A stretch of 64,000 bases of DNA. Source: Candidatus Hydrogenedentota bacterium (GTDB taxonomy: Bacteria > Hydrogenedentota > Hydrogenedentia > Hydrogenedentales > SLHB01). Every line of letters starts with the position of its first letter. The stretch's first letter is position 1. The stretch is taken from assembly GCA_963745075.1 (NCBI GenBank), contig CAVUWV010000001.1, forward strand, positions 1 to 64,000, in the 5' to 3' direction. This document shows positions 24,058 through 62,967 of this stretch, piece after piece. The notes under the pieces are model-generated. The model was not told where the DNA came from and did not search any database. It saw nothing but the letters and a program-made list of their open reading frames with translations. Made by a program: the position numbers and the translations under genes.

Positions 24058-24111
24058 TTTAGCAAAACTTCACCCGCCATTTGCCGGAACTTCATCTTGA
24101 ATGGGTACCAT
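24058..24111 (+). promoter_or_regulatory. 4x11-bp box promoter (copy 1), upstream of YmgE-family gene
   Basis: TTTAGC-TTCACC-TTTGCC-TTCATC, 9 nt, TACCAT. Confidence 0.7.
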
Positions 24112-24303
24112 TGCAATGTAACGGTGCGGGAAAAGGCCGTCGGCTGAGGCTCCGGCTCGTCGGTGCTTAAGTTCTTGGCCCGGACACGCGGCCGGAAAGA
24201 TGATCATCTTGTGGTAAGGAGCATCGGCTTCAAGCTTTAAGCGCGGATATTCCGTGCAGCACGAAAACGGAAATCCCTATTAGTCAAGGGAAAGGAAACC
24301 GCC

Positions 24304-24597
24304 ATGACGCTGACAGTCCCGGTACTTTTGTTCTCTATCGTTATCGCGGCGATTTGCGGGGCCATCGGCAAAGCCATCGCCGGCGACGCTCGCGGTGGGT
24401 TGGTAGTTTCGATCGTCCTCGGTTTCGTAGGAGCACTCCTTGGGCCCTGGATTGCGCACCAGCTCAAGCTCCCGGAGCCGCTGACGATCACCATCGGTGA
24501 CCACCCATTCGGGATTCTATGGGCGATCATCGGCGCAGCGGTCCTGGTTGCGGCCATCCACCTATTCTCCAGGCGGCGGCGGTGGTGGCGGCAGTGA
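24304..24597 (+). CDS. GlsB/YeaQ/YmgE stress-response membrane protein
   Basis: GAIGKAIAG..SIVLGFVGALLG..WAIIGAAVL; AAGGA RBS. Confidence 0.88.
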   Translation: MTLTVPVLLFSIVIAAICGAIGKAIAGDARGGLVVSIVLGFVGALLGPWIAHQLKLPEPLTITIGDHPFGILWAIIGAAVLVAAIHLFSRRRRWWRQ

Positions 24598-24689
24598 CTG
24601 CCGAGCCAACCCTTCTAAAGGATTCGCTTTAATCACTTTTCCTGGATAGACTCTGTTTGACTCTCGCCGCCTTGTCCCGCGGCGGGATG

Positions 24690-24932
24690 CTAGGGTGTCG
24701 TAACGGTCTTGTCCTCCTCGTCGCTGATCGTGTCCTCAGCAGAGCTTCCGAGATTCTCCACACTCTCCGTAGCAGCCGTCCGGTCTTCTTGGATCTTGTC
24801 CTTATCAACCGTAAGCGTGATCTTGGATTCTGCGTCCGCACTCTTCGACGCCAAGCTGAACCACCCCCGGTAAAAGCCGAGGCCCGCGATGACGGCTACG
24901 AGCAAAACGAGCACAAGAGCTAGAGTTTTCAT
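24690..24932 (-). CDS. Small membrane-anchored hypothetical protein
   Basis: N-terminal TM with GFYRGWF and acidic tail; AAGGA RBS. Confidence 0.7.
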   Translation of the reverse strand: MKTLALVLVLLVAVIAGLGFYRGWFSLASKSADAESKITLTVDKDKIQEDRTAATESVENLGSSAEDTISDEEDKTVTTP

Positions 24933-25188
24933 GATTCATCCTTTTTCGGTTGGTCTCAAGAAAGTGACATGGAGATTACGTTAACGATACGAATGTGGGT
25001 GAACTCCGGCTTGCCGTCTTTCGGTCCACCCCCACCCTCCGTTGTTTCAGTTTTGATCTGCTGGCCTTCATGGCTCGTTATCGACGTTCGTAGAGTGACC
25101 ACGACGCCCTGGGCGCGGAAGTCGAGGTCCACAACGTCCAGCCCAACGAATTCAGAGCGGCGAAACGCGTCGGGCAGTCTCCATGGTT

Positions 25189-26589
25189 TCATTTCAGTTC
25201 CTTCAGGAGCTTTTGGAAATCGGGATTGGTATCGAGGATCGTATTGGCTGCCCGACGGAGTCTGTCGATCTGTTCCCTATCCAGTTTGAAGGCCGTGGGG
25301 ATCTCGTTGAGATAGGCCTCTTCCCGGTCGTCACCTAGTCCGTCAAATGACACTTCAATGAAGTGATAGTCGATATCGGGAGTGTCAAGCTCGGGCAGCT
25401 TCTCTTTAACCTGTTTCTCGCCGGATATTTTGGCGATCTGCTCCCGGATCCGTTGTCTCTCTGTGAGGGTCCTGATGTACGTTCGGAGATAGGCGGTCTC
25501 CAACGCGGAGAAGTTGGTCATGGGCTTTCCGCCAGCGGCCATCAGCACCTTAAACATGTTGACCACTTTTTGCTGCCTATTGTAATCAGCATGTCCGGGC
25601 TGCTTGGCATTGACCAGAATAATGATGAACTTCTTTACAGCAACTTGTTTGCTGTCAATCTGAATGCTTTCGCTGGGAACCGCCGCACCGGCAAACTGGA
25701 TTACGGGGAGTATTCCCAGATTGTCGGATACGCCTCCATCAACGAGGTGGATATATGGCCTACCCGGTTGGAGATAGGATTGGTAGTCCCGAAAAAGGGG
25801 ATAGCGAATCCGGCTGGGATCATCGCGCCGCTGTTCTGCGGCGATCCATTCGGGAGCGTGAAAGTCCGGACCCTTTGGATAGTTGCACAAGGTCACCGGC
25901 GTGAGAAATCCCGGATACGCGGACGAGGCTGCTACGGCGAACCCAATTGGATAACTGCTGAGATCGGAGTTGAGCAGATCAAACTGCTGTTGCGTGAACT
26001 CAAATCGGGAGCCCAACGCGATGTCGGTGGAATTAATGATGAGAAAAGGGCGCTCCTGCTTATTCATCAAGTCCGCGAACGTTTTTCCTTCGTAGATTTC
26101 GCTCGTGTATATCTTCGCCAAAATATCTGTGCGACCGAAACGCGGACTGCAAAGCCTGACTACATTGACCGGAGCAAATATCCGTTTTATCAAGTCGCGC
26201 CCAATATTCCTGCAGAGTACCTTATCCGAAAAATCCTCGAATAGGCGGTCGCCAAACAGCCCAAAATAGGCGGCGGTTAGGCTGCCCCCAGAAACGGAGG
26301 AGATGACGTCCACTTCGTCAAGCAGGCGGTGCCGCTGACCTTCCCACGTGATCTCGGTATCTCGAAGTTTTTCGAGAGCGCCATAGGAGAACGCGGCCGC
26401 GCGTGAGCCGCCCCCGGAAAACGCAAGGACCACGAACAGGCTGTCCGAATTGTTCTTGCCTGGGGGGGTATTGGAGAGCCGGTATCCGCTGTCCCCAGCC
26501 TCCACCTTGAGGGGCTGGTTCTGCGGGGGGATCGTGGTACATCCAGCGAGCGCCCATGCGATCGCGAGGCTGAAGATAGTGATTTTCAC
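25189..26589 (-). CDS. Patatin-like phospholipase, lipoprotein
   Basis: Lipobox LAGC; SGGGSRA, SVSGGS and DGG motifs. Confidence 0.9.
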   Translation of the reverse strand: MKITIFSLAIAWALAGCTTIPPQNQPLKVEAGDSGYRLSNTPPGKNNSDSLFVVLAFSGGGSRAAAFSYGALEKLRDTEITWEGQRHRLLDEVDVISSVSGGSLTAAYFGLFGDRLFEDFSDKVLCRNIGRDLIKRIFAPVNVVRLCSPRFGRTDILAKIYTSEIYEGKTFADLMNKQERPFLIINSTDIALGSRFEFTQQQFDLLNSDLSSYPIGFAVAASSAYPGFLTPVTLCNYPKGPDFHAPEWIAAEQRRDDPSRIRYPLFRDYQSYLQPGRPYIHLVDGGVSDNLGILPVIQFAGAAVPSESIQIDSKQVAVKKFIIILVNAKQPGHADYNRQQKVVNMFKVLMAAGGKPMTNFSALETAYLRTYIRTLTERQRIREQIAKISGEKQVKEKLPELDTPDIDYHFIEVSFDGLGDDREEAYLNEIPTAFKLDREQIDRLRRAANTILDTNPDFQKLLKELK

Positions 26590-26840
26590 TCCTGAGATTC
26601 CTTTGGCTGTTCCGGTTCCCAAGGGAGACCGTTTACCGTCTCAACGCCGGACTTTGAATATCGAGCAAGACGATCCCGGTATTTCGCTCCGTATTTCGGA
26701 CTATGCATGCTAAATCCTTCCCGCGTTCGATACTCCCGCCGAACCTCGACCCGATACTCAGATTCGGGACTCGGAGACACTTTCTTTCTTCTGAGACGAT
26801 CCTTCGGGAGTGCCGGGTCACGGCGGTGCATTGCCGCGCG

Positions 26841-27920: not shown

Positions 27921-28033
27921 TTGGATCGCAGTGCCCTATGTGCTCGTGGTAGATTCTATTCGGCAAATCTTGGCGACCTATACAGCGTTTGTACGAACTT
28001 ATGAGATTTGTCCATTTGAAAAAAGAACAACGT

Positions 28034-32505: not shown

Positions 32506-32559
32506 ATTAGGCCAGATTTCCGTAAATGCAGGACAAAGCCTTAGTAAAGGTTTGGCAAA
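32506..32559 (-). promoter_or_regulatory. 4x11-bp box promoter (copy 2)
   Basis: TTTGCC-TTTACT-TTTGTC-TTTACG, 9 nt, CCTAAT. Confidence 0.8.
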
Positions 32560-34457: not shown

Positions 34458-34664
34458 TCAGTCTTTCAAGATGAACGTAATTTTCATGAGCACCCGGTAC
34501 TCGGTGATCTCACCTTCGGAATCAACCAGTGCCTCGTGGCTTTGAATCCACGTGGATTTGACGTTCTTGAGCGTTTTATGCGCCCTTTCAATCCCTTCGG
34601 ATATTGCCGCATCGAAGCTCTCCGTAGAAGACGCCTTAATCTCAGTAATTCGTGCAATCGACAT
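34458..34664 (-). CDS. Dodecin-family protein (copy B)
   Basis: Near-identical to copy A; GAGGAG RBS. Confidence 0.92.
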   Translation of the reverse strand: MSIARITEIKASSTESFDAAISEGIERAHKTLKNVKSTWIQSHEALVDSEGEITEYRVLMKITFILKD

Positions 34665-34823: not shown

Positions 34824-34876
34824 ACTAGGCCAAAACTACGTAAATCCTAGACAAAAACTCGTAAAGTTTTGGCAAA
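34824..34876 (-). promoter_or_regulatory. 4x11-bp box promoter (copy 3), upstream of dodecin B
   Basis: TTTGCC-TTTACG-TTTGTC-TTTACG (one spacer 1 nt short, in an A-run), 9 nt, CCTAGT. Confidence 0.75.
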
Positions 34877-35431: not shown

Positions 35432-35485
35432 ATTAGGCCAGAACTACGTAAATGCAGGTCAAAGAATTCGTAAAGTTTCGGCAAA
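35432..35485 (-). promoter_or_regulatory. 4x11-bp box promoter (copy 4)
   Basis: TTTGCC-TTTACG-TTTGAC-TTTACG, 9 nt, CCTAAT. Confidence 0.8.
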
Positions 35486-38385: not shown

Positions 38386-38781
38386 TCAGGCTGCCGCCAT
38401 CTTCATAATGTTGACCAACGTGTCCTCCACTTCCTGTGCTACACCTTTCAGTTGGGGCGAGTTGAACATTCCCAGCAGCGTGGTTGGCTTCAATGTAGCC
38501 AGAATAGTTCTTCCGCCTTCCTCGAAGATGGAGATCCGGCATGGTAGCGCGGTCGAGACGCTCATATTTTCATCGAGCACCTTCTTCGCTTGTTGCGGTT
38601 GACACACTTCGAAGATTAGGCATTCGCGGGCAAACTCGACGCCCTTCTTCTCCATGGTCTCTTTGAGGTCATGCACCTGCATGACGCCAAAGTGATTGGC
38701 CTGGACCGCAGCCTGCAAGGCTGCCGCCGTATCCTCTACCGTTTTCTCCGTGGGCAGTTTGATCAGCATAGGTTTGCTCAC
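38386..38781 (-). CDS. DUF302 domain protein
   Basis: FGVMQVHDL..IFEVCQP..ALPCRISI. Confidence 0.9.
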   Translation of the reverse strand: MSKPMLIKLPTEKTVEDTAAALQAAVQANHFGVMQVHDLKETMEKKGVEFARECLIFEVCQPQQAKKVLDENMSVSTALPCRISIFEEGGRTILATLKPTTLLGMFNSPQLKGVAQEVEDTLVNIMKMAAA

Positions 38782-38954
38782 CTCCTTGCGACTTCATTTC
38801 GTAACAGCGCTGATCGCTGGCACACGCGCACCATCGTTCTCCATGAATTACGCGTTAGGGCGACTCAGCAGCGCTCGCGGTGGCGAGTGCCGCCCTGAGC
38901 CGCCTAAAAGAGATAGCGCTTCCGTTCAATGAGCTTGAGCGCCGTTACTTACGG

Positions 38955-39107
38955 TTACTTCTGGGCTCCTTCCGCCGCATTTTCGACGGCTTGGCCGCCT
39001 TTCTGAATGTCCTTGCCCGCACCCCTAAAGGTGTTGCAGCCGAGTGCTGAGATACTCAATAGCGCGACCAGAACCAATGCCGTGACGAATTTCTGATAGC
39101 CGTTCAT
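38955..39107 (-). CDS. Entericidin EcnA/B-family lipoprotein
   Basis: MNGYQKFVTALVLVALLSISALGCNTFRGAGKDIQKGGQAVENAAEGAQK (absent from the ORF track). Confidence 0.88.
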   Translation of the reverse strand: MNGYQKFVTALVLVALLSISALGCNTFRGAGKDIQKGGQAVENAAEGAQK

Positions 39108-39249
39108 CTTAAGGTTTCCTTCGCATGGGGTGTTTACTGGTTAGTTCGTGTCTAAATAACAATAAGCGCCGTATCCACTGGGCCGGACGCCGCGCCCGCC
39201 AACGCGTGAACGCCTCTCCAATAAGTACTCTTCTGCGCCTGCTCCTCAA

Positions 39250-39846
39250 TCACACGTCCGCTGTATTGTTATAAGGCGCCTTTGGACCACTTGATTGTCC
39301 GGACGAACTGTTGGAGCCATTGTTCCTGGCACCCACTGGCCGCGCGATTGATTTAGACACTTGTTTTGTGACGATCTCTCGGACGAGTTCAATCAGCGAT
39401 CCAAGGACGATCCCTTTCAACTCTGTAATCTCAGGTTGGAACGTGCTGCCCAGGTTGGCTAGCCAACTTGGTGAAGCCGCGGTGGCGGGCCGAGTGGGGT
39501 CTTTGCCATTGCTGATGTCGCTGACCCGGGTGTGCGGGTGCACGTCAGGATCCGCGCGGGCCAGAGTCGCGTTGTCACCCTTTCCGTCTTCTGCAGTGTG
39601 TCCAGACCGGTGGCTGCCCGAACGCATGCCTCCGAGGAACCCCAGCGCCGTTGCTCCCGCCAGAAGCGTCCAGGGCCGCTGCCGCATATGAAGCTTGAGG
39701 TCAAAGGTGTCTCGGACCGAATTCACGGAGTCCTTGACCGTCCTGACCGTTGCCGAGACCATGTATTCCAACTCTTCGAGCTTGCCGGTCAGGTCGTCCC
39801 GCGTCACATCCATCTGTTTCCGCATCGCATTGCCTTCGTTATCCAC
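39250..39846 (-). CDS. DUF3618/DUF883-like hypothetical protein
   Basis: RKQMDVTRDDLTGKLEELE coiled coil; RPWTLLAGA TM; follows a holin-like gene. Confidence 0.65.
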   Translation of the reverse strand: MDNEGNAMRKQMDVTRDDLTGKLEELEYMVSATVRTVKDSVNSVRDTFDLKLHMRQRPWTLLAGATALGFLGGMRSGSHRSGHTAEDGKGDNATLARADPDVHPHTRVSDISNGKDPTRPATAASPSWLANLGSTFQPEITELKGIVLGSLIELVREIVTKQVSKSIARPVGARNNGSNSSSGQSSGPKAPYNNTADV

Positions 39847-40231
39847 CGACGTTCTCCTTGCGGCCTTGCGTCAACGTGGCGGTCGCGGTATTGAAGAATC
39901 TGTACCTCTGAAACCCCATCAGGCACAGGGCTACGCCAAGGGCCGCGATGGGGGTGCCTACGATTCCGTAGCATCCCCACAAGGGGAGGACCGGCGCTAA
40001 CCGCGCCAGCAGGTGCACCACCATTCCGCAGAGCAAGACGCTGCCCATCACGACGATCGCAAAGCCGACTGCCACGATAGAACCAGCCTCCCGGGCGTGG
40101 TCGATTTCTCCCTTGATCTCATGCCGGAAGAGGGCCAGTTGTTGCTTGGTGAGTACATGGATATCCTCAATGATTCCGTTTACCAGCCCAAAGACACTGG
40201 CTTCCGGCCGCGTTTCCTGATCGTTCGACAT
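39839..40231 (-). CDS. Phage-holin-like (DUF1469/YhjD-type) membrane protein
   Basis: SVFGLVNGIIEDI..QQLALFRHEI plus two TM helices. Confidence 0.75.
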   Translation of the reverse strand: MSNDQETRPEASVFGLVNGIIEDIHVLTKQQLALFRHEIKGEIDHAREAGSIVAVGFAIVVMGSVLLCGMVVHLLARLAPVLPLWGCYGIVGTPIAALGVALCLMGFQRYRFFNTATATLTQGRKENVGG

Positions 40232-40235
40232 TGCA

Positions 40236-40682
40236 TTAGCTCCGCGGCGTCGTAGCCTTGGCGACCAGATACCCGGCGGCAACGCCGATGAGCAGGGCTG
40301 GAATGGGGTTGCGGCGGATTAAGTTCGTCAGGTCTTCGGCCATCTCCTTGACGCCCTCCTCCTGGAGGTAGCGGCCGGTGCTTTCCAAACTGTCGGCCAC
40401 TGCCGAGGAAGCATCGCCGGCTATGCCACCCTCTGGCCCACGGTCGCGGACAGAGTTGCCAAACGACCGGAGCCCACTTCCCACCGCGGAGCTGGCGTCT
40501 CCGGTCTTGTGACCCACGTAGGATGCTGCATCTTCTGCCTTGTGACCCACGTAGGAGGCCGCATCTTCTGCCTTGTGGCCCACGAAGGATGCGACATGCT
40601 CAACCCTTCCGGCGCGATCGGCGTCGAGGCAAGGCTGTATATCGTCATCTGAGTTCCGATTTGAGATCGTCGACTTGTCCAT
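40236..40682 (-). CDS. Hydrophilic protein with 11-mer repeats and DUF883-like tail
   Basis: AS(F/Y)VGHK(AE/TG)DA x3; IRRNPIPALLIGVAAGYL tail anchor. Confidence 0.75.
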   Translation of the reverse strand: MDKSTISNRNSDDDIQPCLDADRAGRVEHVASFVGHKAEDAASYVGHKAEDAASYVGHKTGDASSAVGSGLRSFGNSVRDRGPEGGIAGDASSAVADSLESTGRYLQEEGVKEMAEDLTNLIRRNPIPALLIGVAAGYLVAKATTPRS

Positions 40683-40764
40683 GGTGTATTTCCTTTTCGT
40701 GCTTTTCAGCGGGGAGGCGAGCGGCCGGTACCGATCGCGGAACCGCGCCGCCCGTCGCTTGTGC

Positions 40765-41205
40765 TTACTTCTCGTCTACGGTGATATTGAGCTCGGCGGT
40801 GGCGTCGGGGCCCTTCGTTGGGTGGCCCATCACTTTAACCGCGAAGTCGCCCAGGGCAGCATCGTCTGCTGCGTTCACGGTCACCTTCGCGTCCATGTCA
40901 CTGCGCATGATGACCGGGTCCATCGGATCGATTGTCACGCCGTTGGGTAGGTCGTTGAACATGAGCGTAACATCCTGGTCGATGTTCTTGCCCCGCTTGA
41001 TGCCGATCGTTACGGCTTTGGCCTCGCCTTGGGCAAGTTTCGTGGACATCATGGGCGTGTCGAGGCTGAACGTATCGTCCGTTTGCCCAATCGTGGCTTG
41101 CTCGGAGGCTGGAAGGGAGACTCCAGGACCGCCCGAGGTGCTCTTGTTGCAGCCGAAGGCGGCCACCATGGCTCCTAATAATAGTACCGCAATAACATGT
41201 TTCAT
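40765..41205 (-). CDS. Hypothetical lipoprotein (Ig-like)
   Basis: Signal ending AFGC; beta-rich body; AAGGA RBS. Confidence 0.75.
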   Translation of the reverse strand: MKHVIAVLLLGAMVAAFGCNKSTSGGPGVSLPASEQATIGQTDDTFSLDTPMMSTKLAQGEAKAVTIGIKRGKNIDQDVTLMFNDLPNGVTIDPMDPVIMRSDMDAKVTVNAADDAALGDFAVKVMGHPTKGPDATAELNITVDEK

Positions 41206-41305
41206 CAGTGAATATCCTTTCGTTGTTGTAGGGGGAGTCTCCGTCCCACATCGGGCGGGCGCGGTGTGTTCCACTAAAGGTTCAGCTCGCTGCTCGTGGA
41301 GGGGT

Positions 41306-41509
41306 CTACGGTTGGGCCAAGTCGTTGACCTTGTTGACCGCCTTCTCAGCCTTCTCTTTTCCGGCACCGTAGCCTTCCTGAAACTTGCCGGTAAGCTGAT
41401 CGCGTTGCCCGGCGATGATGGTCGAGTCGTCGTTCGTCACCTTGCCCCACTTTGCCTTGGCCCTTCCCTTTAGCTGTTTCCAGTTGCCTTTGACTTGATC
41501 CCAGTTCAT
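41306..41509 (-). CDS. csbD: CsbD-family general stress protein
   Basis: MNWDQVKGNWKQLKGRAKAKWGKVTNDD..G.RDQL.GK.QE.YG. Confidence 0.93.
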   Translation of the reverse strand: MNWDQVKGNWKQLKGRAKAKWGKVTNDDSTIIAGQRDQLTGKFQEGYGAGKEKAEKAVNKVNDLAQP

Positions 41510-41690
41510 TTCTATTCTCCTTGGAGAACGAGATCTCCGATTTCCGTGTATGTCACCCAGGGTTACTTCCACTCGACGGCGACGGGTTGAGTACGCGAGG
41601 TCGGCAAGTCCTGAAGGCGGACGACGTAGTTCGACTGAATCGGTTTCCGTCGCTTCTTCAACGCGGCCTGTCCACCCCATCAAGTTGCAT

Positions 41691-41912
41691 TTAGTGCTTT
41701 ATGAGCGGAAAGACCAATAATCCGGTGCCGATGACTATGGCGCCTGCGCCGGCCCAGATGGGAATGTTGACCGTCTCCTTCTCCGTGATGGTCAGCTCGA
41801 TCGGTCCCAACTTGGCGCCTTGCGACTCCTTGTTGTAGCTGAAGCCGCCGTACACCAGCCCCAGGATGCCGGCCACGATCAGCACAAGCGCCACTATCAT
41901 GTATGTCTTCAT
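41691..41912 (-). CDS. DUF3185-like small membrane protein
   Basis: LIVAGILGLVYGGFSY..KLGPIEL..NIPIWAG. Confidence 0.8.
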   Translation of the reverse strand: MKTYMIVALVLIVAGILGLVYGGFSYNKESQGAKLGPIELTITEKETVNIPIWAGAGAIVIGTGLLVFPLIKH

Positions 41913-42047
41913 TTTGTCTGCTCCTGTTGAGGAATCAGCGAATTTCAGTTACGGGCGGCGCTGGGATGGCCAGATTGGACAACCGGTTCTCCGGCAAGCG
42001 AGACCATTTCACCCCGCGCTACACCGCAATTTCGCGCGCTACGGTCG

Positions 42048-42197
42048 TTACACGACGCTTCGGCCTCGAATCACGCTAAGAAGTATTGCGATGACCGCGA
42101 TGACTAAGAGTACGTGAATCAATCCGCCCATCGTGTACGACGTGAGCAGGCCGAGTAGCCACAAGACGACCAGGACAACTATCAGTGTGTAAAGCAT
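42048..42197 (-). CDS. lmo0937-family small membrane protein
   Basis: MLYTLIVVLVVLWLLGLLTSYTMGGLIHVLLVIAVIAIL; AGGAG RBS. Confidence 0.88.
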   Translation of the reverse strand: MLYTLIVVLVVLWLLGLLTSYTMGGLIHVLLVIAVIAILLSVIRGRSVV

Positions 42198-42332
42198 TGT
42201 TTCTTCTCCTGTACGTGATTTCGTTTCTTCCGGAGCAGCAATTCCGCTCACGGATCTACGCTCAGCGGAGCGGTTCTTCCGGAAGTGAAAGGACAGCCCG
42301 TTCATTTCTATTGGGTGTTTCCACCGGTGTTT

Positions 42333-42740: not shown

Positions 42741-42873
42741 ATCGACGTTCCTTGCATGAATCCCATGCGTCGCTCTCTTAGGAGCTAACTTTCTGGATGC
42801 AGGGGCATGCATTGCTCATCCGACGATGCACTGATGTCCAATCGATATCGGGTTGATGAGCAACCGAGCCCCA

Positions 42874-44809: not shown

Positions 44810-44872
44810 GATCCGTTCTCCTGACGATTTCCTGTCGGTTTGGTGCAAATTGTGAAAGCAAGAAGAGCAACG

Positions 44873-45019
44873 TTACTTCTGGGCGCCCTCGGCCGCGTTT
44901 TCAATGCTCTTGCCGCCTTCTTGAATGTCTTTTCCCGCACCCCGGAAGGTGTTGCATCCGAGCGCACCGGCGCTCATGAGCGTGCCAACCACCAATGCAA
45001 TAATTAGTCTCTTAAACAC
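44873..45019 (-). CDS. Entericidin EcnA/B-family lipoprotein
   Basis: MFKRLIIALVVGTLMSAGALGCNTFRGAGKDIQEGGKSIENAAEGAQK (GTG start; absent from the ORF track). Confidence 0.85.
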   Translation of the reverse strand: MFKRLIIALVVGTLMSAGALGCNTFRGAGKDIQEGGKSIENAAEGAQK

Positions 45020-45129: not shown

Positions 45130-45582
45130 TTAGACGGACGTTCGGTTATGTGTCATCCAGTACTGACCGATGGTTTCCACAACGGTCTGAAAGTCAGAAA
45201 AACTCAGCGGCTTTATGATGTAGCTGTTTGCTCCGCAACGATAGCTCTCTTTGATGTCGCCGGCGGATTGCGAATCCGTGAATACGACCACAGGCGTGAC
45301 CGTAAGGGCGTCTTCCCGCTCGATGGACCGTATTTGGCCGAGTACCGAGAACCCGTCCGATTCCGGCAGCGCCAGGTCCAGCAGGATCAGTCTGGGAGGA
45401 TCTTCCCCGGCACGATCTGCCCATGCGCCGCGACTAAAGAGAAAGTCGAGCGCCTCTGGCCCGTCCCGAACGGACGTGACGACCACATCGGGTATGGACT
45501 CTTGCAGCGTAAGTACGATGGATGCCCGTTGGCTCTCATTATCTTCCACGACCAGGATGTCTACTGGATCACGATTCTTCAC
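45130..45582 (-). CDS. Single-domain response regulator (Rcp1-like)
   Basis: VVEDN, LILLDLALP, GANSYIIKP and YW tail. Confidence 0.9.
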   Translation of the reverse strand: MKNRDPVDILVVEDNESQRASIVLTLQESIPDVVVTSVRDGPEALDFLFSRGAWADRAGEDPPRLILLDLALPESDGFSVLGQIRSIEREDALTVTPVVVFTDSQSAGDIKESYRCGANSYIIKPLSFSDFQTVVETIGQYWMTHNRTSV

Positions 45583-45643: not shown

Positions 45644-45697
45644 AGGGTACCTGTCCGTGATGAACTTCTGGCAAACCTGCGGCAAAGGTTTGGTAAT
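45644..45697 (-). promoter_or_regulatory. 4x11-bp box promoter (copy 5), head of the 45.6-38 kb gene run
   Basis: ATTACC-TTTGCC-TTTGCC-TTCATC, 9 nt, TACCCT. Confidence 0.75.
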
Positions 45698-45895: not shown

Positions 45896-45949
45896 TTTAC
45901 CGAAACTTTACACAGTTTTTGCCTACGCTTTGCTCGGGGACGGTAATGT
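45896..45949 (+). promoter_or_regulatory. 4x11-bp box promoter (copy 6), no obvious downstream CDS
   Basis: TTTACC-TTTACA-TTTGCC-TTTGCT, 9 nt, TAATGT. Confidence 0.75.
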
Positions 45950-46633: not shown

Positions 46634-46675
46634 CTCATAACCCAAAGGTCGCAGGTTCGAATCCTGCCCCCGCCA
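46634..46675 (+). mobile_element. 3' half of tRNA-fMet (att-site-like remnant)
   Basis: CTCATAACCCAAAGGTCGCAGGTTCGAATCCTGCCCCCGCCA covers the anticodon loop, T-arm and acceptor 3' strand. There is no 5' half. Confidence 0.75.
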
Positions 46676-53005: not shown

Positions 53006-54064
53006 TTAATCGCGAAAGCTGAGCCTGAACTCCGCGCGGCGATTCTGCTTGCGATTTGCTTCGCTGGTATTTGGCACCGCCGGACGGGTTTCCCCGTAGG
53101 CTTCGGTAGTAATACGGCTCCCATCGATGCCGTGTTCCACCAAGTAGGCCTTTACGGAATTGGCGCGGCGTTGGCTCAGGTCCATATTGTATTGAGAGGA
53201 ACCCAGGTCGCAGGTATGGCCCTCGATTGCGAGGCGCTCAAGCGTATGTGCCCTGATTTCTGCGACCAGCTGATCCAGTGCCGCTTTTCCTTGCGGCTTC
53301 AGCACGGACTTGTCAAAGTCGAAGAGGATCTCATTCGGCAGGACGATTCTTTGTTCTACGATCGTGGGGGCGGAGCCGGGGCCGAAGAAGATTTCCCGGA
53401 CCATTGCGTCCATTCCCTCGGAAGTATCCACTTCGGATGCCTGCCAGGCGTGTCCGCAACCCGTTACGCGTGTCATATCTCCCAGCAGCACCTTACCCGA
53501 ATCGCTGAATCCAACGTTTACGGTATAGATGCACAGCTCGCCGTCGTGTGCTTTCGCGATCGCTTCGCAGGCATTCAAGACTCGCTCATGGGGATGGGTC
53601 CTGCCGTCGGAGAACACCACTAGCGCGGATCTTCCGGTCTGCCCTTCAAACTCCGATCCGGTGACGAGTACACCCTGGTGCAACGGCGTTGTACCGCCGA
53701 GATACCGCAGGTGGTCCGCGCAATCCTTGAGGGCATCCAAGGTACCGCTGCGCAGGGGCACCTGCATCCAATCGGATTCTGACCCCCCGGCGAACGAACT
53801 GAACCCCATTTGATATGCCATGTCGGGCATAGCGCCCACGAATGCCTTCAGGAGATTCTTCTCCTGCTGGAAGACTCGATGTTCACGGGTCGACCCCGTC
53901 ACGTCGGCGAGGATCATGACTTGGTCCACTTTGAGCACCTCGCCCGGTCCAGGGGTTACCCGCGTCACCGGGAAGGATCGTGCGTGCATCGTCTGACAGC
54001 CGGTCAATGCACCGACGGCCAACACACAACACGCAATACACACTACGCGGCGGATGGTACGCAT
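53006..54064 (-). CDS. vWA + OmpA-domain lipoprotein
   Basis: Lipobox LTGC; DVTGS/TPL/SDG MIDAS-like motif; FDFDKS, IEGHT, LSQRRA and NRRAE. Confidence 0.92.
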   Translation of the reverse strand: MRTIRRVVCIACCVLAVGALTGCQTMHARSFPVTRVTPGPGEVLKVDQVMILADVTGSTREHRVFQQEKNLLKAFVGAMPDMAYQMGFSSFAGGSESDWMQVPLRSGTLDALKDCADHLRYLGGTTPLHQGVLVTGSEFEGQTGRSALVVFSDGRTHPHERVLNACEAIAKAHDGELCIYTVNVGFSDSGKVLLGDMTRVTGCGHAWQASEVDTSEGMDAMVREIFFGPGSAPTIVEQRIVLPNEILFDFDKSVLKPQGKAALDQLVAEIRAHTLERLAIEGHTCDLGSSQYNMDLSQRRANSVKAYLVEHGIDGSRITTEAYGETRPAVPNTSEANRKQNRRAEFRLSFRD

Positions 54065-54131: not shown

Positions 54132-54185
54132 ATTAGGTCAAACAAGGGCAAATTCCGGGTAAATACAAGGTAAAGAGTTGGTAAA
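54132..54185 (-). promoter_or_regulatory. 4x11-bp box promoter (copy 7), upstream of OmpA-vWA
   Basis: TTTACC-TTTACC-TTTACC-TTTGCC, 9 nt, CCTAAT. Confidence 0.85.
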
Positions 54186-54324: not shown

Positions 54325-54378
54325 TTTACCGAAACTTTACCCCCGTTTTACCCCATGATTACCCACACATGGCTAAAT
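54325..54378 (+). promoter_or_regulatory. 4x11-bp box promoter (copy 8), upstream of radical SAM
   Basis: TTTACC-TTTACC-TTTACC-ATTACC, 9 nt, CTAAAT. Confidence 0.85.
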
Positions 54379-54447: not shown

Positions 54448-56586
54448 TTGAATGGACATCTCGAGATGCAAATCCGCGAAGACAATCCCCTGATGCACTT
54501 ACACGTAGTCTATGTCCGTCCGTCGCGATATGATGACGACGGTTACGTTGTGCGCTTTGCGCGTGGTGTCTTGCCGTCCAACACCCTATGTTGTCTCGAA
54601 AGCCTGACCGAACGCGTTGCGGAACGCGGCGACCTGGGTTCGGCTGTGAAGGTAACCGTGGACGTATTTGACGACACGGTGCAGAGAATCCCGATCCGAC
54701 GGATTGCGAAGCTGAACCGCCGGCCCGGGACGACGGTCGTCGTGGGTTTCGTGGGGGTTCAGAGCAACCAGTTCATGCGCGCCTCGGACCTCGCCCTGGA
54801 ATTGCGTGAGCAAGGCGTGCAGGTCATGATCGGCGGGTTCCACGTCAGCGGCGTTCTGACGTTGTTCGATAAGCCCTCCTATGAACTCCAACGGCTTCTG
54901 GATCACGGGGTGACACTGGTGAAGGGGGAAGTGGAAGCGCCGGGGATCATGGCGATGCTGCTGGGCGACGCCCTCCATGGCGCCATGAAACCCGTCTACA
55001 ACATCACCGAGTGGCCGGACTTGGCGAACGCACCCGTGCCGCACGCCAACCCGAAATTGCAGTGGCGCTACGTCGCGAAACGGATGGCGACAATTGACAC
55101 CAGCCGGGGGTGCCTGTTCAACTGCTCCTTTTGCACCATCATCAATGTCCAGGGCCGGAAAATGCGCTTTCGCTCCTCGGCGTTAGTGCTCAAAGCTATC
55201 GAAGAGAACTACGCCAATGGGATTCGCTTCTACTTCTTCACCGATGATAATTTCGCACGGAATCCCATGTGGAACGAGATTTTCGACGGCCTAATCGCGC
55301 TGCGGAATCGCGGCATTCGGGTCCAGTTCATGATGCAGACCGACACCCAGGCGCATCGCATCCCGAACTTCGTGGAGAAAGCGGCTGAGGCGGGATGCTA
55401 TCTCGCCTTCATCGGCATGGAGAGTGTGAACCCGGAAAACCTTAAGGCCGTCGGCAAACGGCAGAATCATACGCAGGAATATGTGCAGATGGTGGAAACC
55501 TGGCACCAGCACAAAATCCTGGTACACGTCGGTTACATCATTGGCCTGCCGTTCGACTCGCGGGAATCCGTTCGCAACGACATAGAATACCTGCGCAATC
55601 AGATCAAAGTGGATCTTGCGTCCTTGTTCATGCTGACGCCCTTGCCCGGGTCTCGCGACCATTGGCAGATGGTTCAGGACAACGTCCCCATTGACGCAGA
55701 CTACAATGACTACGACGGGCTTCACGAGACATTCCGGCACGGGCTCATGCCAAACGGTGCATGGCGCGCCGCGTACGATGAGGCCATGCACATGCTATAC
55801 AGCAAAGAGAACATCGTCGCCGCGTTGTTGCGCACGGACTCCGAGCACTATTGGGAAATCATGTGTTTTTCGATCTGGTATCGCCACGGTACGTTAGTTG
55901 GCATGCACCCGATGGCGACCGGGGTCTTTCGCCTCAAAGATCGACGTTCCCGACGCCCAATCTTCCCGCGCGAGAACGTACTTCAATACGGTTGGCGCCG
56001 GATGAAGGATTCATACCACGGCATGAGGACCTATCTCGGCCTCTTCTTCGAATTCCAGGAGATTTGGATGCTCACCCGCAAGCCCCACGATCCACGCTGG
56101 GCGACCCTCGCCGACTTGCGCGAAAAATGGACGGACGTGCAGCACCGTCTCGTGGAATACGACCTTCAGGGGCGGTATTCGGATGCCGCCCAGGAACTCA
56201 AGGCGATGCTCACTAGCACCGCCGACCGATTGCGCCAGCTAAGCCGCGCAGGAGGGCACATCAGTTTCTCCGTCCGGCGCAGGTTGCAGAAGAAGGCGGC
56301 GGAAGTGGAGAGCTATCTGAGAGCCTTCGACATGCAGGCACCGGGCTGGAGTGACGTCGCCGATGCCGAACGCTTTGTGAAAAAGACCGTGATCGCCGGT
56401 TACGAAGAGATTGCGATTCGCTACGTGGCCAAGCGCCGCCAATTCAATGCGTTTCGCCAGGACACACTCGAGCGAATCAAGGCCGGACAGCTTCTGAGCA
56501 TCAATGTATTCCGTATTCCCTATGCGATGGTGTGTGAAATCTTCTTCGCTTCGCGGTTCGCCATGCATTTCTTCGCCCACAATTGA
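54448..56586 (+). CDS. B12-binding-type radical SAM protein
   Basis: IGGFH, SRGCLFNCSFC, FTDDNF, GMES and TPLPGS motifs. Confidence 0.9.
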   Translation: MNGHLEMQIREDNPLMHLHVVYVRPSRYDDDGYVVRFARGVLPSNTLCCLESLTERVAERGDLGSAVKVTVDVFDDTVQRIPIRRIAKLNRRPGTTVVVGFVGVQSNQFMRASDLALELREQGVQVMIGGFHVSGVLTLFDKPSYELQRLLDHGVTLVKGEVEAPGIMAMLLGDALHGAMKPVYNITEWPDLANAPVPHANPKLQWRYVAKRMATIDTSRGCLFNCSFCTIINVQGRKMRFRSSALVLKAIEENYANGIRFYFFTDDNFARNPMWNEIFDGLIALRNRGIRVQFMMQTDTQAHRIPNFVEKAAEAGCYLAFIGMESVNPENLKAVGKRQNHTQEYVQMVETWHQHKILVHVGYIIGLPFDSRESVRNDIEYLRNQIKVDLASLFMLTPLPGSRDHWQMVQDNVPIDADYNDYDGLHETFRHGLMPNGAWRAAYDEAMHMLYSKENIVAALLRTDSEHYWEIMCFSIWYRHGTLVGMHPMATGVFRLKDRRSRRPIFPRENVLQYGWRRMKDSYHGMRTYLGLFFEFQEIWMLTRKPHDPRWATLADLREKWTDVQHRLVEYDLQGRYSDAAQELKAMLTSTADRLRQLSRAGGHISFSVRRRLQKKAAEVESYLRAFDMQAPGWSDVADAERFVKKTVIAGYEEIAIRYVAKRRQFNAFRQDTLERIKAGQLLSINVFRIPYAMVCEIFFASRFAMHFFAHN

Positions 56587-56706: not shown

Positions 56707-57462
56707 TTACTCGGGCACATCCACGAACCGGTAGCCGGTCCCGCGCACAGTTTCCAGGAACCTGGGGTTGTCTGGATCGTCCTCGATCTTCTTCCGAATA
56801 TGCCCGATGTGCACGTCCACGACTTTTGGAATACTGTAGCTGCTGTCTTTCCACGCGAGTTCGAGAAGCTTGTCCCGCGTAAATACATGTTCGGGGCGTC
56901 GCGCAAGCGTGTAGAGCAGGTCGAACTCGACGCCGGTCAGTTCGATTGGGACATCGTCTTTCCACACGCGCCGTTCACCCGGGTCTAAACGCAAGCGGCG
57001 AAAACGCAAGACCTTGTCCCCCTCCACCTCGTCTTTGGATCTGCGCAGAATCGCCTCAATGCGGGCGCTGAGTTCTTGAAAATGAAACGGTTTGGGCACG
57101 TAATCGTCCGCCCCGATCGTGAGAGCCATAACTTTGACCGCCGAGATATTGGTGGAACTCAGCATCAGGACAGGTACATTGCCCGAATCGCGGATCTTGC
57201 GCAGCACTTCAATTCCGTCGATCGAACGTTCTCCCTTGGTCGTGGTATCCGGGAAATTGATGTCGAGCACCACGAGGTCCAGTTCCATGGATTTGGCGAG
57301 CGCCACCGCAGATCGCCCGTCGGCCGCGGTTGTCACCTCATACCCCTGATTCTCAAGATGCTTTTGGACATCCCGCAACAGTTTCCGGTCGTCATCCACA
57401 ACCAGAATCCTGCTCTTTGAAGTCTTTGTCAAAATTCCAGCATCCTTTTTGGTGACCGTCAA
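56707..57462 (-). CDS. OmpR/PhoB-family DNA-binding response regulator
   Basis: REC plus LTGVEFDLL..VVDVHIGHIRKKIE..TVRGTGY winged helix. Confidence 0.95.
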   Translation of the reverse strand: MTVTKKDAGILTKTSKSRILVVDDDRKLLRDVQKHLENQGYEVTTAADGRSAVALAKSMELDLVVLDINFPDTTTKGERSIDGIEVLRKIRDSGNVPVLMLSSTNISAVKVMALTIGADDYVPKPFHFQELSARIEAILRRSKDEVEGDKVLRFRRLRLDPGERRVWKDDVPIELTGVEFDLLYTLARRPEHVFTRDKLLELAWKDSSYSIPKVVDVHIGHIRKKIEDDPDNPRFLETVRGTGYRFVDVPE

Positions 57463-57474: not shown

Positions 57475-58623
57475 TCATTCACCCAGCGTAAAGTAAATTG
57501 TCGCGCCCTGATCGGTCTGGCCTTCGGCCCATATGCGGCCGGTGTGCCGTTCGATGATACGTTTAACGAGAGCCAGGCCAACTCCCGATCCCTCGAAATC
57601 ATGGGCTTTATGGAGCCGGTGAAACGCTAAAAACATCGATTCCGAGTGGATCATGTCAAACCCCACGCCGTTGTCACGGACAAAGTACACCGTTTCACCG
57701 TCGGGTTGGTTGAAACCGACATGGATCTCCGCCCTTTCGCGCGGCCGCGTAAACTTCAGGGCATTCGCCAGGACGTTCAAGAATACCTGTTTCAGAAGTG
57801 CACGATCCGCGCGGCATGGAGGCAACTCGTCAATCACGACGACCACTTCGCGGCCTTCCTGCTCGTCCTGCAACTCCTCCAGCGCCTCGTGTGCCAGTCG
57901 TCGCACGTCAACGCGCCGTTTTCTCATGGGCTCGCGGTTTACTCGCGAAAATGTGAGGAGATCCTCGATGAGCTTGCCCATTTCCCGGGTGCTATTCAAG
58001 ATCATGTGAGTCTTTTCCACGGCTCCGTCTGGAAGTTGGGCACCGTGTTCCTGAAGCAGCAGGTGCGCAATCTTGTTCGTCAACCGCAGAGGAGAGCGCA
58101 GGTCATGCGAAACGGAATGCGTGAACGATTCAAGCTCGAAATTGATTCGCTCAAGTTCGGCTCCGTGCCGCTGGAGTACCTCGTTCAACTCCTGGATTCT
58201 TCGCTCCGCCTCCTTTTCGCGTGTGATCTCTCGGAGTTCCACGAGGATCACGTTGGTCTGGTCTTCCCCCATGGTTATACGCCGGGCGCTGAGAGACAAA
58301 ACTTTTCGCGTACTTGGCGGGACCGCGCATACGATTTCGACGTCTTTCGCGTTGCCTTCCCGGGCCACGACCGCCTCCAGGACTGCCCGCAACCGCGGTT
58401 GACCCTTCTCTCCGGCGATAAGTTCCTGGACCGACTTCCCCGCCAAGTGTCCCGGGACGATCCCCAATGCTTCGAAGAAGGCTGGGTTCGCCGCTATTGC
58501 CCGGAGCGTTTCGTCCAGAACGAGGACCGGTTCGGCTAGTGCGTTCAGGATGGATTCGGCGATCTTCATGGGTTCTACCAGCGTCCTCGGATGCTGCCCC
58601 CCCAACGGCACTCCCATACTCAT
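57475..58623 (-). CDS. Cytoplasmic PAS histidine kinase
   Basis: PAS; SVSHDLRSPL, NALKF, DNGVGF and GSGVGL motifs; no TM. The start may be 58569. Confidence 0.93.
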   Translation of the reverse strand: MSMGVPLGGQHPRTLVEPMKIAESILNALAEPVLVLDETLRAIAANPAFFEALGIVPGHLAGKSVQELIAGEKGQPRLRAVLEAVVAREGNAKDVEIVCAVPPSTRKVLSLSARRITMGEDQTNVILVELREITREKEAERRIQELNEVLQRHGAELERINFELESFTHSVSHDLRSPLRLTNKIAHLLLQEHGAQLPDGAVEKTHMILNSTREMGKLIEDLLTFSRVNREPMRKRRVDVRRLAHEALEELQDEQEGREVVVVIDELPPCRADRALLKQVFLNVLANALKFTRPRERAEIHVGFNQPDGETVYFVRDNGVGFDMIHSESMFLAFHRLHKAHDFEGSGVGLALVKRIIERHTGRIWAEGQTDQGATIYFTLGE

Positions 58624-58746: not shown

Positions 58747-58800
58747 TTTACCGAAGTTTTGCCAGTACTTTGCCGGGAGATTACCCAATTCTGGCCTAAT
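58747..58800 (+). promoter_or_regulatory. 4x11-bp box promoter (copy 9), upstream of rubrerythrin
   Basis: TTTACC-TTTGCC-TTTGCC-ATTACC, 9 nt, CCTAAT. Confidence 0.85.
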
Positions 58801-58917: not shown

Positions 58918-59355
58918 ATGAATCCGCAGACGCAAGATAACTTGTTGCAAGCCATGCGCGGCGAGGCATTCGCCTTCGTGAAGTACGAGCTGTTCGCCGA
59001 TCAGGCTCGTCAGAATGGACGGGAGGAACTCGCGGCGCTGTTCGAAAATACGGCGCAGGTAGAGCGCCTGGAGCACTTCGCCGAACTCGCCGAACTCGCC
59101 GGGTTGGTGGGCAACGACTACGACAACCTGTGTAACGCCGTCCACGATGAATCGTACGAAGCGGAGAGTATGTACCGTGAGTTTGCCGCGCAGGCGGCCG
59201 CCCCTGGCGACAATCACGCGGCCGCCCGGTTTGCCGAAATAGGCCGGGATGAGATGCAGCACCGCGACGCTTTCAAGGCGGCCCTGCAAGAGCTCGAGGC
59301 GGGCAGGCAGACCAACGTCGACATGGTTACTGCACCGGAGCCTCATCATGTGTGA
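58918..59355 (+). CDS. Rubrerythrin-family (ferritin-like di-iron) protein, no rubredoxin domain
   Basis: TQDNLLQAMRGEAFA, E..EH, ESYE..MY and DEMQH motifs; GAGGA RBS. Confidence 0.88.
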   Translation: MNPQTQDNLLQAMRGEAFAFVKYELFADQARQNGREELAALFENTAQVERLEHFAELAELAGLVGNDYDNLCNAVHDESYEAESMYREFAAQAAAPGDNHAAARFAEIGRDEMQHRDAFKAALQELEAGRQTNVDMVTAPEPHHV

Positions 59356-61145: not shown

Positions 61146-61199
61146 TTTACCAAAGCTTTGCCAATCCTTTGTCTCAGTTTCGTGTCGATGCGCGACAAT
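61146..61199 (+). promoter_or_regulatory. 4x11-bp box promoter (copy 10), upstream of DUF3309
   Basis: TTTACC-TTTGCC-TTTGTC-TTCGTG, 9 nt, GACAAT. Confidence 0.8.
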
Positions 61200-61290
61200 A
61201 TGGGTAACGGAATGGGCTCGGCCGGGCGCGGTTGCCAAAAGACGACCGCGAACGGCCGGGCCGGCTGTCAACGAACTAAAGGAGCCCATT

Positions 61291-61455
61291 ATGGGTACGA
61301 TTCTGCTGGTTATTCTTGTTTTGATGATCTTTGGCTTTTCGCCCAGATGGGGCTATAGCCGGAATTGGGGCTACGGTCCCAGCGGCTTCGTCGGACTGGC
61401 TGCGGTTGTCGTGTTGGTGCTTTTGTTTATGGGACACCTGCCCCGCGGTTTCTGA
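61291..61455 (+). CDS. DUF3309-family small membrane protein
   Basis: MGTILLVILVLMIFGFSPRWGYSRNWGYGPSG..; AAGGAG RBS (absent from the ORF track). Confidence 0.9.
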   Translation: MGTILLVILVLMIFGFSPRWGYSRNWGYGPSGFVGLAAVVVLVLLFMGHLPRGF

Positions 61456-61649
61456 TGCATCGTGTATCTTGCCCGACCCAGGTGGCCCGGCTTGCCGTTG
61501 ATTGAAAGGACCCGCCGGCCGGAAACGCGTGAGTGGGAGGTGTCGAATTACATTAATGCCATTAGACGGTTTCCGTCGGGCATCGGGCGTTGTTCGTCCC
61601 GGCCGGCACAGGCTGACTAGAGGAGCTTGGCCGGCGCGAGGTTCAGGCT

Positions 61650-62620
61650 ATGCAATCGAATTTGACAAATATGCGTGTTCTCACGACGCGCCACCACGTA
61701 TTGGGTTTGCTTGGGATTGCTGTTGTTTGCGCTATACCTTTTACGGCCCGTGGCGGAAATACCAAACTCGCCAACGGTGCTGGCGACATCGCCGGTGTAT
61801 CGGTGGCCAGTACTAATGATGCCGCCAAGGACAGTCACGGCCCTACCGTAAAGTTGAGTTATGGCAATGATGAATCCCGACAGAATCCTATTTCCTCCTT
61901 TATGTATTTTGTCCCGCTGATCTCCTTGAATCTTGTGGATAGGCAAACCAGTGCCAACAATGATGAGGAGATAGGTATTGTCTCGTATGAACGGAAGATA
62001 GACGCAAAATCCTTCTTTGTGGCCTGTGAATTCGAAATATCGGGAGAAGGTTTTCATAAGAGCTCATTTGACCCGGCGGGGGTAATAGCAACACGCACCG
62101 CCAATCTGAAAAGAAATGAGTCGCTGGTACGGGTACTGGACTATATCAAATTCGAGGGAGAAGGATTCGGCCGTATCGAAGTAGAAGGAACGATAAACGA
62201 TTCCGCGGAGACCGTTACCGGAGTGAACCTCCGGTTCAATGCGCGCGGGGGAAGAGTCCTGTGACCATTGGCCTATATGACATCAAGCCGCGGGACGGAC
62301 AATACCAGTACGAGAACCGATCGAATGAGGTGGTCGCCCGGGTGAATACGCTCGCATTCAAGAAAACCGCGGAGACCCCCAAGATGGAGATAAGTGTGGC
62401 GTCAATCGCCAGGGCAGTAGCGCCGGATGGTTACTTCGCCCGCATCAAAGGGACACTAGCGACTCTGCTTATGAAGCCGCCGAAAATTGACGCGCTCGGC
62501 AATGAAACCATGCTCAGCTTTGGATATGCCATACTCAAGCAAGAACCCGAGTTCACGTTCCCGACCGCGAAAAATCTCAAGGAAGACAGAACGGTTGCCG
62601 CTTTGGCGCCTCAGCCATGA
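61650..62620 (+). CDS. Secreted hypothetical protein; frameshift in G-run near 62250
   Basis: Signal peptide. Adding one G joins ARGG-KSPVTIGLYD. Confidence 0.7.
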
Positions 62621-62913
62621 GCTGTTGAGCACTGCTGAGCCCGTGAAGCGCTTGACAGCATATTTCGGTATTGCGCTCCGGACGCTTTTTCCACGTAAGC
62701 CGCGCGTGTTGTTTGAGCGGGCCAATACGATAGCTGATTTTAATAGCCTTCCCTTCCCCAAGTCCTTGAGCGGTTGCCCCCTCAACCGCTCAAGGACGCT
62801 CCTTTTCTGTGGACCTGCAATCGGTTGTGGCGCGATATTGATCAAACGTATCCGTTCCGGAGTTTGCTGATTGGTCGGACACGTCTTTGTCTGCAGGCAC
62901 GCAGCGGAGAATG

Positions 62914-62967
62914 TTTACCAAAGCTTTACCAATTCTTTATCTGCGTTTCGTGCGCCAAAGGCACAAT
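62914..62967 (+). promoter_or_regulatory. 4x11-bp box promoter (copy 11)
   Basis: TTTACC-TTTACC-TTTATC-TTCGTG, 9 nt, CACAAT. Confidence 0.8.

Follow-up and report, generated by a model that had tools for sequence, protein, structure and literature searches.

Twelve four-box arrays and a candidate OmpR/PhoB-family regulator in an accessory island of a Candidatus Hydrogenedentota genome

Introduction

The question raised by this locus is what a set of similar intergenic elements, gathered in one island of a bacterial genome, does for the genes around it, and which protein could bind them. The analysed stretch, hereafter the window, comprises the first 64,000 nucleotides of a contig (C1:1-64000) from assembly GCA_963745075.1, which represents an uncultured soil bacterium of Candidatus Hydrogenedentota (6.8 Mb, 36 contigs, G+C content 59%), and the island covers about 39 kb of it (C1:24-63 kb). 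A first-pass annotation had listed eleven of these elements, each an array of four TTTRCC-like boxes followed by a hexamer resembling a -10 element, and had proposed that a two-component activator uses them to control a general-stress gene set. The phylum Hydrogenedentota is known from metagenome-assembled genomes (MAGs), and no published work on its transcription control was found, nor any tying this box, direct repeats and a response regulator together. As far as sequence comparison can tell, the arrays are probably promoter elements bound by the OmpR/PhoB-family regulator encoded in the island, which would switch on the clustered small stress-type genes. This would be a two-component switch of a familiar type, in a phylum without described regulation.

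Geometry and sequence of the arrays

To begin with, the sites were read directly, and a weight matrix of 54 bp trained on the eleven listed sites (24058(+), 32559(-), 34876(-), 35485(-), 45697(-), 45896(+), 54185(-), 54325(+), 58747(+), 61146(+) and 62914(+)) was run over the whole assembly; for sites on the minus strand, the coordinate quoted is the 5′ end on that strand. All eleven were present with the geometry claimed for them, including the single 10-bp step, which lies between boxes 2 and 3 of 34876(-). Moreover, a twelfth array was found at 23944..23997 (-), divergent from 24058(+), with four boxes followed by TGG-CCAAAT and a matrix score of 37.8 though it is outside the training set. 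Each of the twelve arrays in the island presented four TTTRCC-like boxes at 11-bp steps, apart from the one shorter step already mentioned, and an A-rich first spacer (consensus aAA.c).

A hexamer ending in T started exactly 9 nt after box 4 in all 12 window sites, and the same distance and the same final T appeared in 27 of the 27 sites of related genomes scoring at least 30 bits, which were selected with the matrix built from the window sites. TGN preceded the hexamer in seven of the 12 arrays. A sigma-70 scan flagged no TTGACA-like -35 element at 16-18 nt in any of the 12 arrays, while the proximal boxes fall at the -35 position and box 4 ends 9 nt before the hexamer, the positions relative to the start being predicted ones.

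Across the 12 arrays, the boxes with the hexamer had a median identity of 0.68, compared with 0.375 for the spacers and 0.26 for the flanks, so that conservation is confined to the boxes, as at a protein-binding site, and does not extend as it would in a repeated element. Only 32559(-) and 35485(-) resembled recent duplicates. All 12 arrays were intergenic; a crude gene call of 58 aa overlapping 54325(+) is probably spurious. Furthermore, 10 of the 12 faced a gene on the same strand 60-330 nt away, and the statement that ten of the eleven listed sites point into a gene holds, with 45896(+) as the exception.

Confinement to the island

The arrays scored between 34 and 62 bits with the matrix, compared with 15 bits for the best site elsewhere in the 6.8-Mb genome. 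A plain three-box pattern (TTTRCC-N5-TTTRC-N6-TTTRNC) gave a similar picture: all nine exact matches in the genome lay inside the island, as did all 14 matches with up to one mismatch. With up to two mismatches, 20 of 30 matches were inside, corresponding to the 12 arrays and their register shifts, and six of the ten outside fell in coding DNA according to crude gene calls. The motif is not equally common in shuffled DNA, since 100 shuffles of the window yielded no match, compared with 14 observed. A chance origin of the arrays is excluded.

In the scan of the whole assembly with both matrix and pattern, no array appeared left of 23.9 kb or elsewhere in the genome. The first-pass remark that there were none left of 24 kb is therefore right from 23.9 kb leftwards, and it overlooked the twelfth array at 23997(-).

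The island regulator and its kinase

Among the 51 open reading frames (ORFs) of the island scanned with Pfam, about 20 of which had no Pfam family, the only protein found with a DNA-binding domain was the product of 56707..57462 (-), the proposed binder of the boxes. It consists of a receiver domain (PF00072, 6e-23) and a C-terminal winged-helix Trans_reg_C domain (PF00486, 1.1e-24), which places it in the OmpR/PhoB family, and its best solved relatives were MtrA, PrrA, RegX3 and KdpE. The motifs VVDDD, LVVLD, LSS and PKP, visible in its translation, are candidates assigned by eye for the acidic pocket, the phospho-acceptor Asp and the conserved Ser/Thr and Lys. As a side observation, the receiver domains of both this regulator and a receiver-only protein of the island (45130-45582) carry an insertion of about 10-17 aa after the acceptor Asp, the extra loop of the regulator being of about 10 aa.

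The same operon encodes a histidine kinase (57475..58611, -) with PAS, HisKA and HATPase domains according to Pfam, which ends 13 nt upstream of the regulator gene. In every fetched locus of a relative that held both genes, the kinase orthologue (44-75% identity) was no more than about 100 bp away from the regulator gene. The gene immediately upstream of the orthologous pair in G014 (L047:13688-16591) codes for a CheB-CheR-PAS fusion of 967 aa.

The regulator missed the NCBIfam equivalog cut-offs of MtrA (186 of 300 bits), RpaB (181 of 330), PhoB (TIGR02154, 166 of 296) and CpxR (140 of 341), with RpaB as the second-best model, and it was only the fifth-best PhoB-like protein of its own genome. 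No phosphate-uptake family was found by Pfam among the 51 island ORFs scanned. As no equivalog was reached and no phosphate-uptake genes were found among those ORFs, the regulator is not that of a Pho, Cpx, RpaB or MtrA system, and it likely works in the way those systems do while belonging to none of them.

Co-occurrence of the pattern and the regulator across the phylum

The closest loci in public genomes belonged to MAGs of Candidatus Hydrogenedentota, and a sample of 135 genomes of the phylum was analysed, taking 262 bits or more as the threshold for a regulator orthologue. Such an orthologue was present in 26 of the 135 genomes (54-81% identity), and the exact three-box pattern in 30, with a total of 85 matches compared with 8 for a reversed-pattern control. 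The pattern appeared in 19 of the 26 regulator-positive genomes and in 11 of the 109 regulator-negative ones (Fisher p = 3e-10, a value that overstates the association, as the genomes are related and thus not independent of each other). Seven regulator-positive genomes had no exact match, and three of these carried matches with up to one mismatch or full arrays. Moreover, the pattern was on the contig of the regulator and within 15 kb of it in 14 genomes, and in three (G039, G071 and G016) a box match lay just past the kinase end of the kinase-regulator pair.

A core OmpR-type regulator of the same family (C14:168217) was used as a control. It was found in 89 of the 135 genomes, namely in 25 of the 30 with the motif and 64 of the 105 without it, and in all five congeners, including four that lack the pattern. 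Thus, the control regulator shows almost no link to the pattern. The first-pass proposal of an OmpR/PhoB-type tandem-repeat geometry that replaces the -35 element is supported, in that the island encodes such a regulator beside a PAS kinase and this regulator, opposite to the control, is linked to the pattern across the phylum.

Regarding the regulator-negative genomes, their pattern-bearing contigs were short fragments of the island with the receiver gene, PilT, radical SAM, DUF3309, CsbD, dodecin or OmpA genes, and in G128 the regulator would, judging by the synteny with G132, be located off the end of the contig. These cases therefore fit assembly gaps, without this amounting to proof. In the scanned island stretches of three relatives (G014, G019 and G027), no other regulator gene was found, apart from one weak match to sigma region 4 (25.1 bits, the cut-off being 25.7). 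Outside the phylum, in Chloroflexota and others, the fetched loci of regulator homologues (identity up to 49%) showed no array above 18 bits.

Arrays before orthologous genes in relatives

The matrix detected the full 54-bp layout in relatives, and the genes that it preceded were orthologous across genera. In particular, an array stood before the orthologous receiver-only gene in nine genomes, always of the subtype ATTACC..TTCATC..GGTAnnCT; besides the present one, these were G014, G019, G027, G020, G016, G038, G065 and G050, the site in G016 reaching only 23.9 bits. Eight genomes had an array before DUF3309 (the present one, G132, G014, G019, G020, G005, G027 and G128), and in two of them (G014 and G019) an orthologue of the radical SAM gene sits behind DUF3309 and its array. 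Arrays also preceded the orthologue of the OmpA-VWA gene in G014 and those of a 65-aa protein in G132 and G020. Furthermore, relatives presented arrays before genes for CsbD, DUF5670, YflT (G014) and SPFH proteins and, weakly, before groES-groEL.

A separate observation concerns the DUF3309 leader, of which about 90 nt are conserved; this part opens with GTGATGARAG and a GC-rich stretch at a distance of 5-14 nt from the hexamer (window 61200-61290; L013, L048, L049, L054, L058, L052 and L076). A conserved leader common to the whole regulon was considered and rejected, as the conservation after the hexamer was limited to the orthologous DUF3309 leaders. The alignment of these leaders gave no supported consensus structure (four pairs, no compensatory change).

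Comparison with known systems

In B. subtilis, PhoP-dependent promoters carry four TT(A/T/C)ACA repeats at a spacing of about 11 bp on the coding strand, roughly between -60 and -20, which are needed for activation. That layout is nearly the same as the one described here and the half-site is similar, while regulon and phylum differ. The consensus of CpxR has GTAAA repeats, and the island boxes read GTAAA on the other strand; this resemblance, to which the first-pass annotation had drawn attention, is weak, given the score of the regulator with the CpxR model and a period of 11 bp and not 10, with four units instead of two. For the E. coli pho box, there is a rule of '10 bp upstream of the -10'.

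The arrays are similar to the PHO-box operators of E. coli PhoB, S. coelicolor PhoP, M. tuberculosis PhoP and GlnR, which in the passages cited consist of 11-nt direct repeats with the first 6-7 positions conserved and have their proximal units over the -35 region (PMC2275107, PMC4415409, PMC11825685). Unlike a PHO box, the half-site is TTTRCC and not CTGTCAT or GTTCACC; unlike the Pho system, the predicted targets are small stress-type proteins and the kinase has an N-terminal PAS domain. Another similar case is RpaB of cyanobacteria, a member of the OmpR family that governs a stress or redox acclimation regulon and whose HLR1 half-site, (G/T)TTACA(T/A)(T/A), is close to TTTACC, as described in PMC6525291. 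In contrast to the island arrays, HLR1 is reported there as a single pair of repeats, each of 8 nt and with a period of 10 bp, whose position decides between activation and repression (PMC6525291).

Proposed mechanism and alternative explanations

A regulon run by a two-component system is well supported by comparative genomics, and the following steps are proposed for it. The PAS kinase (57475-58611) would phosphorylate the regulator (56707-57462) upon a signal, and two head-to-tail dimers of the regulator would then fill all four boxes along a single DNA face, from roughly -60 to -22. These positions assume a transcription start about 7 nt after the hexamer, which sets the boxes at about -60/-55, -49/-44, -38/-33 and -27/-22. 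The proximal dimer, covering boxes 3 and 4, would stand in for a -35 element and recruit RNA polymerase to a promoter having only a -10 element. The predicted outputs are small membrane or stress proteins (YmgE-type, DUF3309 and dodecins, with CsbD and entericidin probably among them), together with the rubrerythrin, the radical SAM enzyme and the OmpA-VWA operon. A second tier of signalling may also be included, with the receiver-only regulator, a hybrid kinase with a receiver-HD protein and receiver-cyclase proteins.

There are precedents for several of these steps in the cited literature. For PhoP of Streptomyces, binding is described at two to six direct-repeat units of 11 nt; it extends cooperatively from the core units and is poor at a unit of 10 nt (PMC2275107). 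The PHO box is defined as a pair of 11-nt units, in which 7 positions are conserved and which are bound head-to-tail (PMC4415409). The arrays agree with these layouts in their 11-bp period and in their even number of units. According to the cryo-electron microscopy of M. tuberculosis PhoP, two, four or six protomers bind as tandem dimers, the proximal dimer overlapping the -35 region and displacing sigma region 4, and the same source notes this arrangement for GlnR and PmrA (PMC11825685). A model of PhoB likewise overlaps the -35 region (PMC3348028).

Several observations weigh against this mechanism. Two arrays, 45896(+) and 23997(-), had no convincing downstream gene. The hexamer was CCTAAT in four of the 12 arrays and CCTAGT in one, so that the usual A at the second -10 position is absent from them. 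As to the binder, the 11 genomes with the pattern and no detected regulator should be reminded, in five of which the best regulator match was only 38-40% identical and corresponded to the core control regulator or a similar one, and the genome studied encodes five other full-length OmpR-type regulators, including the one used as control. Finally, RpaB represses from sites whose centres lie between -38 and +23 and activates from those near -51 (PMC6525291), and the predicted array centre near -41 leaves the sign of regulation uncertain given these positions.

This last point bears on an explanation in which the same regulator binds the boxes and mainly represses, or acts in both directions, occupied boxes 3 and 4 blocking the polymerase until the signal arrives. 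The stretch occupied by boxes 3 and 4, from about -38 to about -22, falls among the repressing RpaB positions, and box 3, read as TTGCCn, matches TTGACA at 4-5 of 6 positions with a 19-bp spacer, so some basal activity is conceivable. Nevertheless, a 19-bp spacer is poor and no array had a recognisable -35 element at 16-18 nt; the orientation is strict and the hexamer stands at a fixed 9 nt, in the relatives as well, which suits polymerase recruitment better than simple occlusion. Moreover, this is the position from which PhoB, M. tuberculosis PhoP and GlnR exert activation in the account of PMC11825685. Repression as the main role is thus conceivable but unlikely.

It is also plainly unlikely that the boxes are bound by another protein, either one of the five other OmpR-type regulators or an unrecognised binder among the island ORFs of no assigned family. 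The regulator-negative genomes with the pattern, the failure to find an orthologue in five of them and the 20 or so ORFs lacking a Pfam family would favour such a binder. Conversely, the core OmpR-type control does not track the pattern, the island regulator lies close to it in the 14 genomes mentioned, and what carries the pattern in the regulator-negative genomes are short pieces of this same island.

A third explanation would take the array as the promoter of an alternative sigma factor, with box 3 or 4 as its -35 element and the upstream boxes as phased A/T-rich enhancers. With CsbD, YflT, entericidin and YmgE/GlsB-type proteins, the gene content overlaps that of the sigmaB, RpoS and EcfG stress regulons and resembles alternative-sigma regulons of other phyla, and genes for sigma factors of the extracytoplasmic function (ECF) type are located nearby, at window 2048-2557 and C1:66585-67154. 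However, the shared cis-element is a tandem-repeat site and not the -35/-10 pair of an alternative sigma factor: four equal 11-bp units are no sigma signature, and the usual distance between a -35 and a -10 element is matched by neither of the box-to-hexamer spacers, 9 nt and 20 nt. No sigma gene was found in the island or conserved inside the islands of relatives, and this explanation is very unlikely. The arrays might also be what is left of a short element, repeated or mobile, without a regulatory role, as the tRNA-Met fragments and mobile-element relics of the region and the near-duplicates 32559(-) and 35485(-) might suggest; this is hardly credible, with flanks at the random level of identity and spacers far below the boxes, all copies intergenic, 10 of the 12 facing a gene, and the same architecture before orthologous genes across genera with different spacers.

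Activation by the island regulator is therefore retained as the probable reading. The regulon that it proposes is concrete, with one regulator, one kinase, a defined promoter of 54 bp and some ten transcription units, and is conserved in several families of the phylum. On this reading, small stress proteins which are under alternative sigma factors in Firmicutes and Proteobacteria would here be under a two-component activator, and the regulator and its targets would be kept together in one accessory block.

Arrays and the genes behind them

The leftmost array facing a gene (24058..24111, +), of the subtype ending TTCATC..GGTACCAT, precedes a transglycosylase-associated small membrane protein of the YmgE/GlsB type (24304..24597, +; PF04226 by Pfam). 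Downstream of its divergent neighbour 23997(-), there were only ORFs of 34-86 aa without a homologue among the fetched loci.

Three arrays on the minus strand follow. The first (32506..32559) precedes a small CxxC protein (32227-32472, -) and a dodecin (31946-32197, -; PF07311 by Pfam), the second (34824..34876), which is the one with a 10-bp step, precedes a dodecin paralogue (34458..34664, -; PF07311 by Pfam), and the third (35432..35485) precedes a small hydrophobic protein without a family (35066-35368). Behind the dodecin of 32559(-), a string of signalling genes was observed on the same strand (25189-31651, -), encoding a hybrid PAS kinase, a receiver-HD protein, a receiver-adenylate/guanylate cyclase and a patatin. 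If this string were co-transcribed, the regulon would feed into second-messenger signalling.

The receiver-only response regulator (45130..45582, -; PF00072 by Pfam, no output domain) is preceded by an array of the conserved subtype ATTACC..TTCATC..GGTACCCT (45644..45697, -). Downstream of it on the same strand lies a string without an array of its own (38386..44995, -), comprising entericidin (44873-44995), DUF5670, CsbD (41306-41509), holin-X-like, DUF302 and genes without an assigned function, before which the matrix found no array above 12 bits. Co-transcription of CsbD and entericidin with the array-bearing receiver gene is putative, and the membership of the string in the regulon is inferred only. 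Regarding the stress gene set named in the first pass, CsbD, entericidin, transglycosylase-associated/YmgE, DUF3309, dodecin and rubrerythrin proteins were all present according to Pfam, while CsbD and entericidin lack their own array here.

Divergent from the receiver gene, the array 45896..45949 (+) has no downstream gene, the next conserved gene (46328-46594) being on the opposite strand. This array and 23997(-) may drive small RNAs or very small proteins, and 45896(+) may produce a transcript antisense to that conserved 89-aa gene (46328-46594, -). No Rfam family was found in the window, nor around 45896(+) at E values up to 1. An identical 13-mer was observed at window 45980-45992 and 58842-58854 (+), 31 and 42 nt after the hexamers of 45896(+) and 58747(+), respectively, with 0.03 expected by chance; the regions around it otherwise gave no alignment.

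Two arrays lie near 54 kb. One (54132..54185, -), in which a fifth box-like TTGACC overlaps the hexamer, precedes an OmpA-family protein with a VWA domain (53006..54064, -; Pfam), followed on the same strand by SpoIIAA-like, HAD/PMM, GH130, P-type ATPase and PPK2 genes, whose co-transcription is putative. The other (54325..54378, +) precedes a B12-type radical SAM protein of 712 aa (54448..56586, +). Further right, the kinase-regulator operon and the gene for a rubrerythrin-like protein (58918..59355, +) diverge from a region that holds the array 58747..58800 (+); the array faces the rubrerythrin gene, after which come a 60-aa ORF and a PilT-family ATPase (59887-61032). The array 61146..61199 (+) precedes DUF3309 (61291-61455, +) and two conserved genes without an assigned function (61671-62264 and 62261-62620, +). 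Finally, a terminator-like hairpin with a 15-bp stem (62762-62797) is followed by the last array (62914..62967, +), before a conserved 65-aa protein (63295-63492).

Origin and possible mobility of the island

The 39.6-kb stretch had a G+C content of 57.0%, compared with a median of 59.4%, which placed it in the lowest 2.8% of 40-kb windows, and the regulator and the pattern were not found in four of the five congeners, whose genomes are 72-99% complete. The fifth (G005) carried diverged fragments of the island, with 62% identity for the orthologue of 61671-62264, compared with 95% for the core control regulator. On the other hand, the best regulator matches came from other genera and families, with 81% identity in G115 and 80% in G071; for the core control regulator, these two genomes reached only 67% and 60%, respectively.

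ARAGORN detected no tRNA in the window, and tRNA-Met pieces were found by BLAST only. A 3′ fragment of tRNA-Met(CAT) comprising tRNA positions 33-72 was located at 46634..46673 (+), in the middle of the island and inside the regulon, not at its edge, where it resembles the remnant of an attachment site, and further identical 3′ fragments in the same + orientation at C1:78341-78382 and 83643-83687. The intact tRNA-Met lies on another contig (C4 c[15719-15795]), beside an integrase (C4:14410-14886); C4 ends 15.7 kb away and its join to C1 is unassembled, although C4 may join the start of C1. The fragments look like an array of integrated elements at tRNA-Met. Moreover, G020 has the same fragment close to its receiver gene, G019 has part of an integrase at the edge of the island, and G014 has a transposase within it.

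The region is accessory, because its G+C content is low, it is absent from four of the five congeners and tRNA-Met 3′ fragments are present. Horizontal movement of the block is plausible, the identity rankings included, and part of this signal could be mimicked by errors in MAG binning. A bolder proposal is that the regulator, the kinase and a dozen promoters without a -35 element, which no other regulator could fire, are part of an island array associated with tRNA-Met and move together between Hydrogenedentota lineages as a self-contained stress module. A recipient would thereby acquire a general stress response already wired and needing no alternative sigma factor, which is possible and is put forward tentatively.

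The comparison with congeners fixed neither border of the island: for the left flank, three congeners gave no match at the DNA level, and for the right flank the matches were only scattered. As a minor observation, the region has on either side a pair of genes, one for a planctomycete-type ECF sigma factor (PF07638) and one for a Ser/Thr kinase (window 1390-2557, -, and C1:66585-68681, +), and the left kinase ORF, of only 205 aa, may be truncated.

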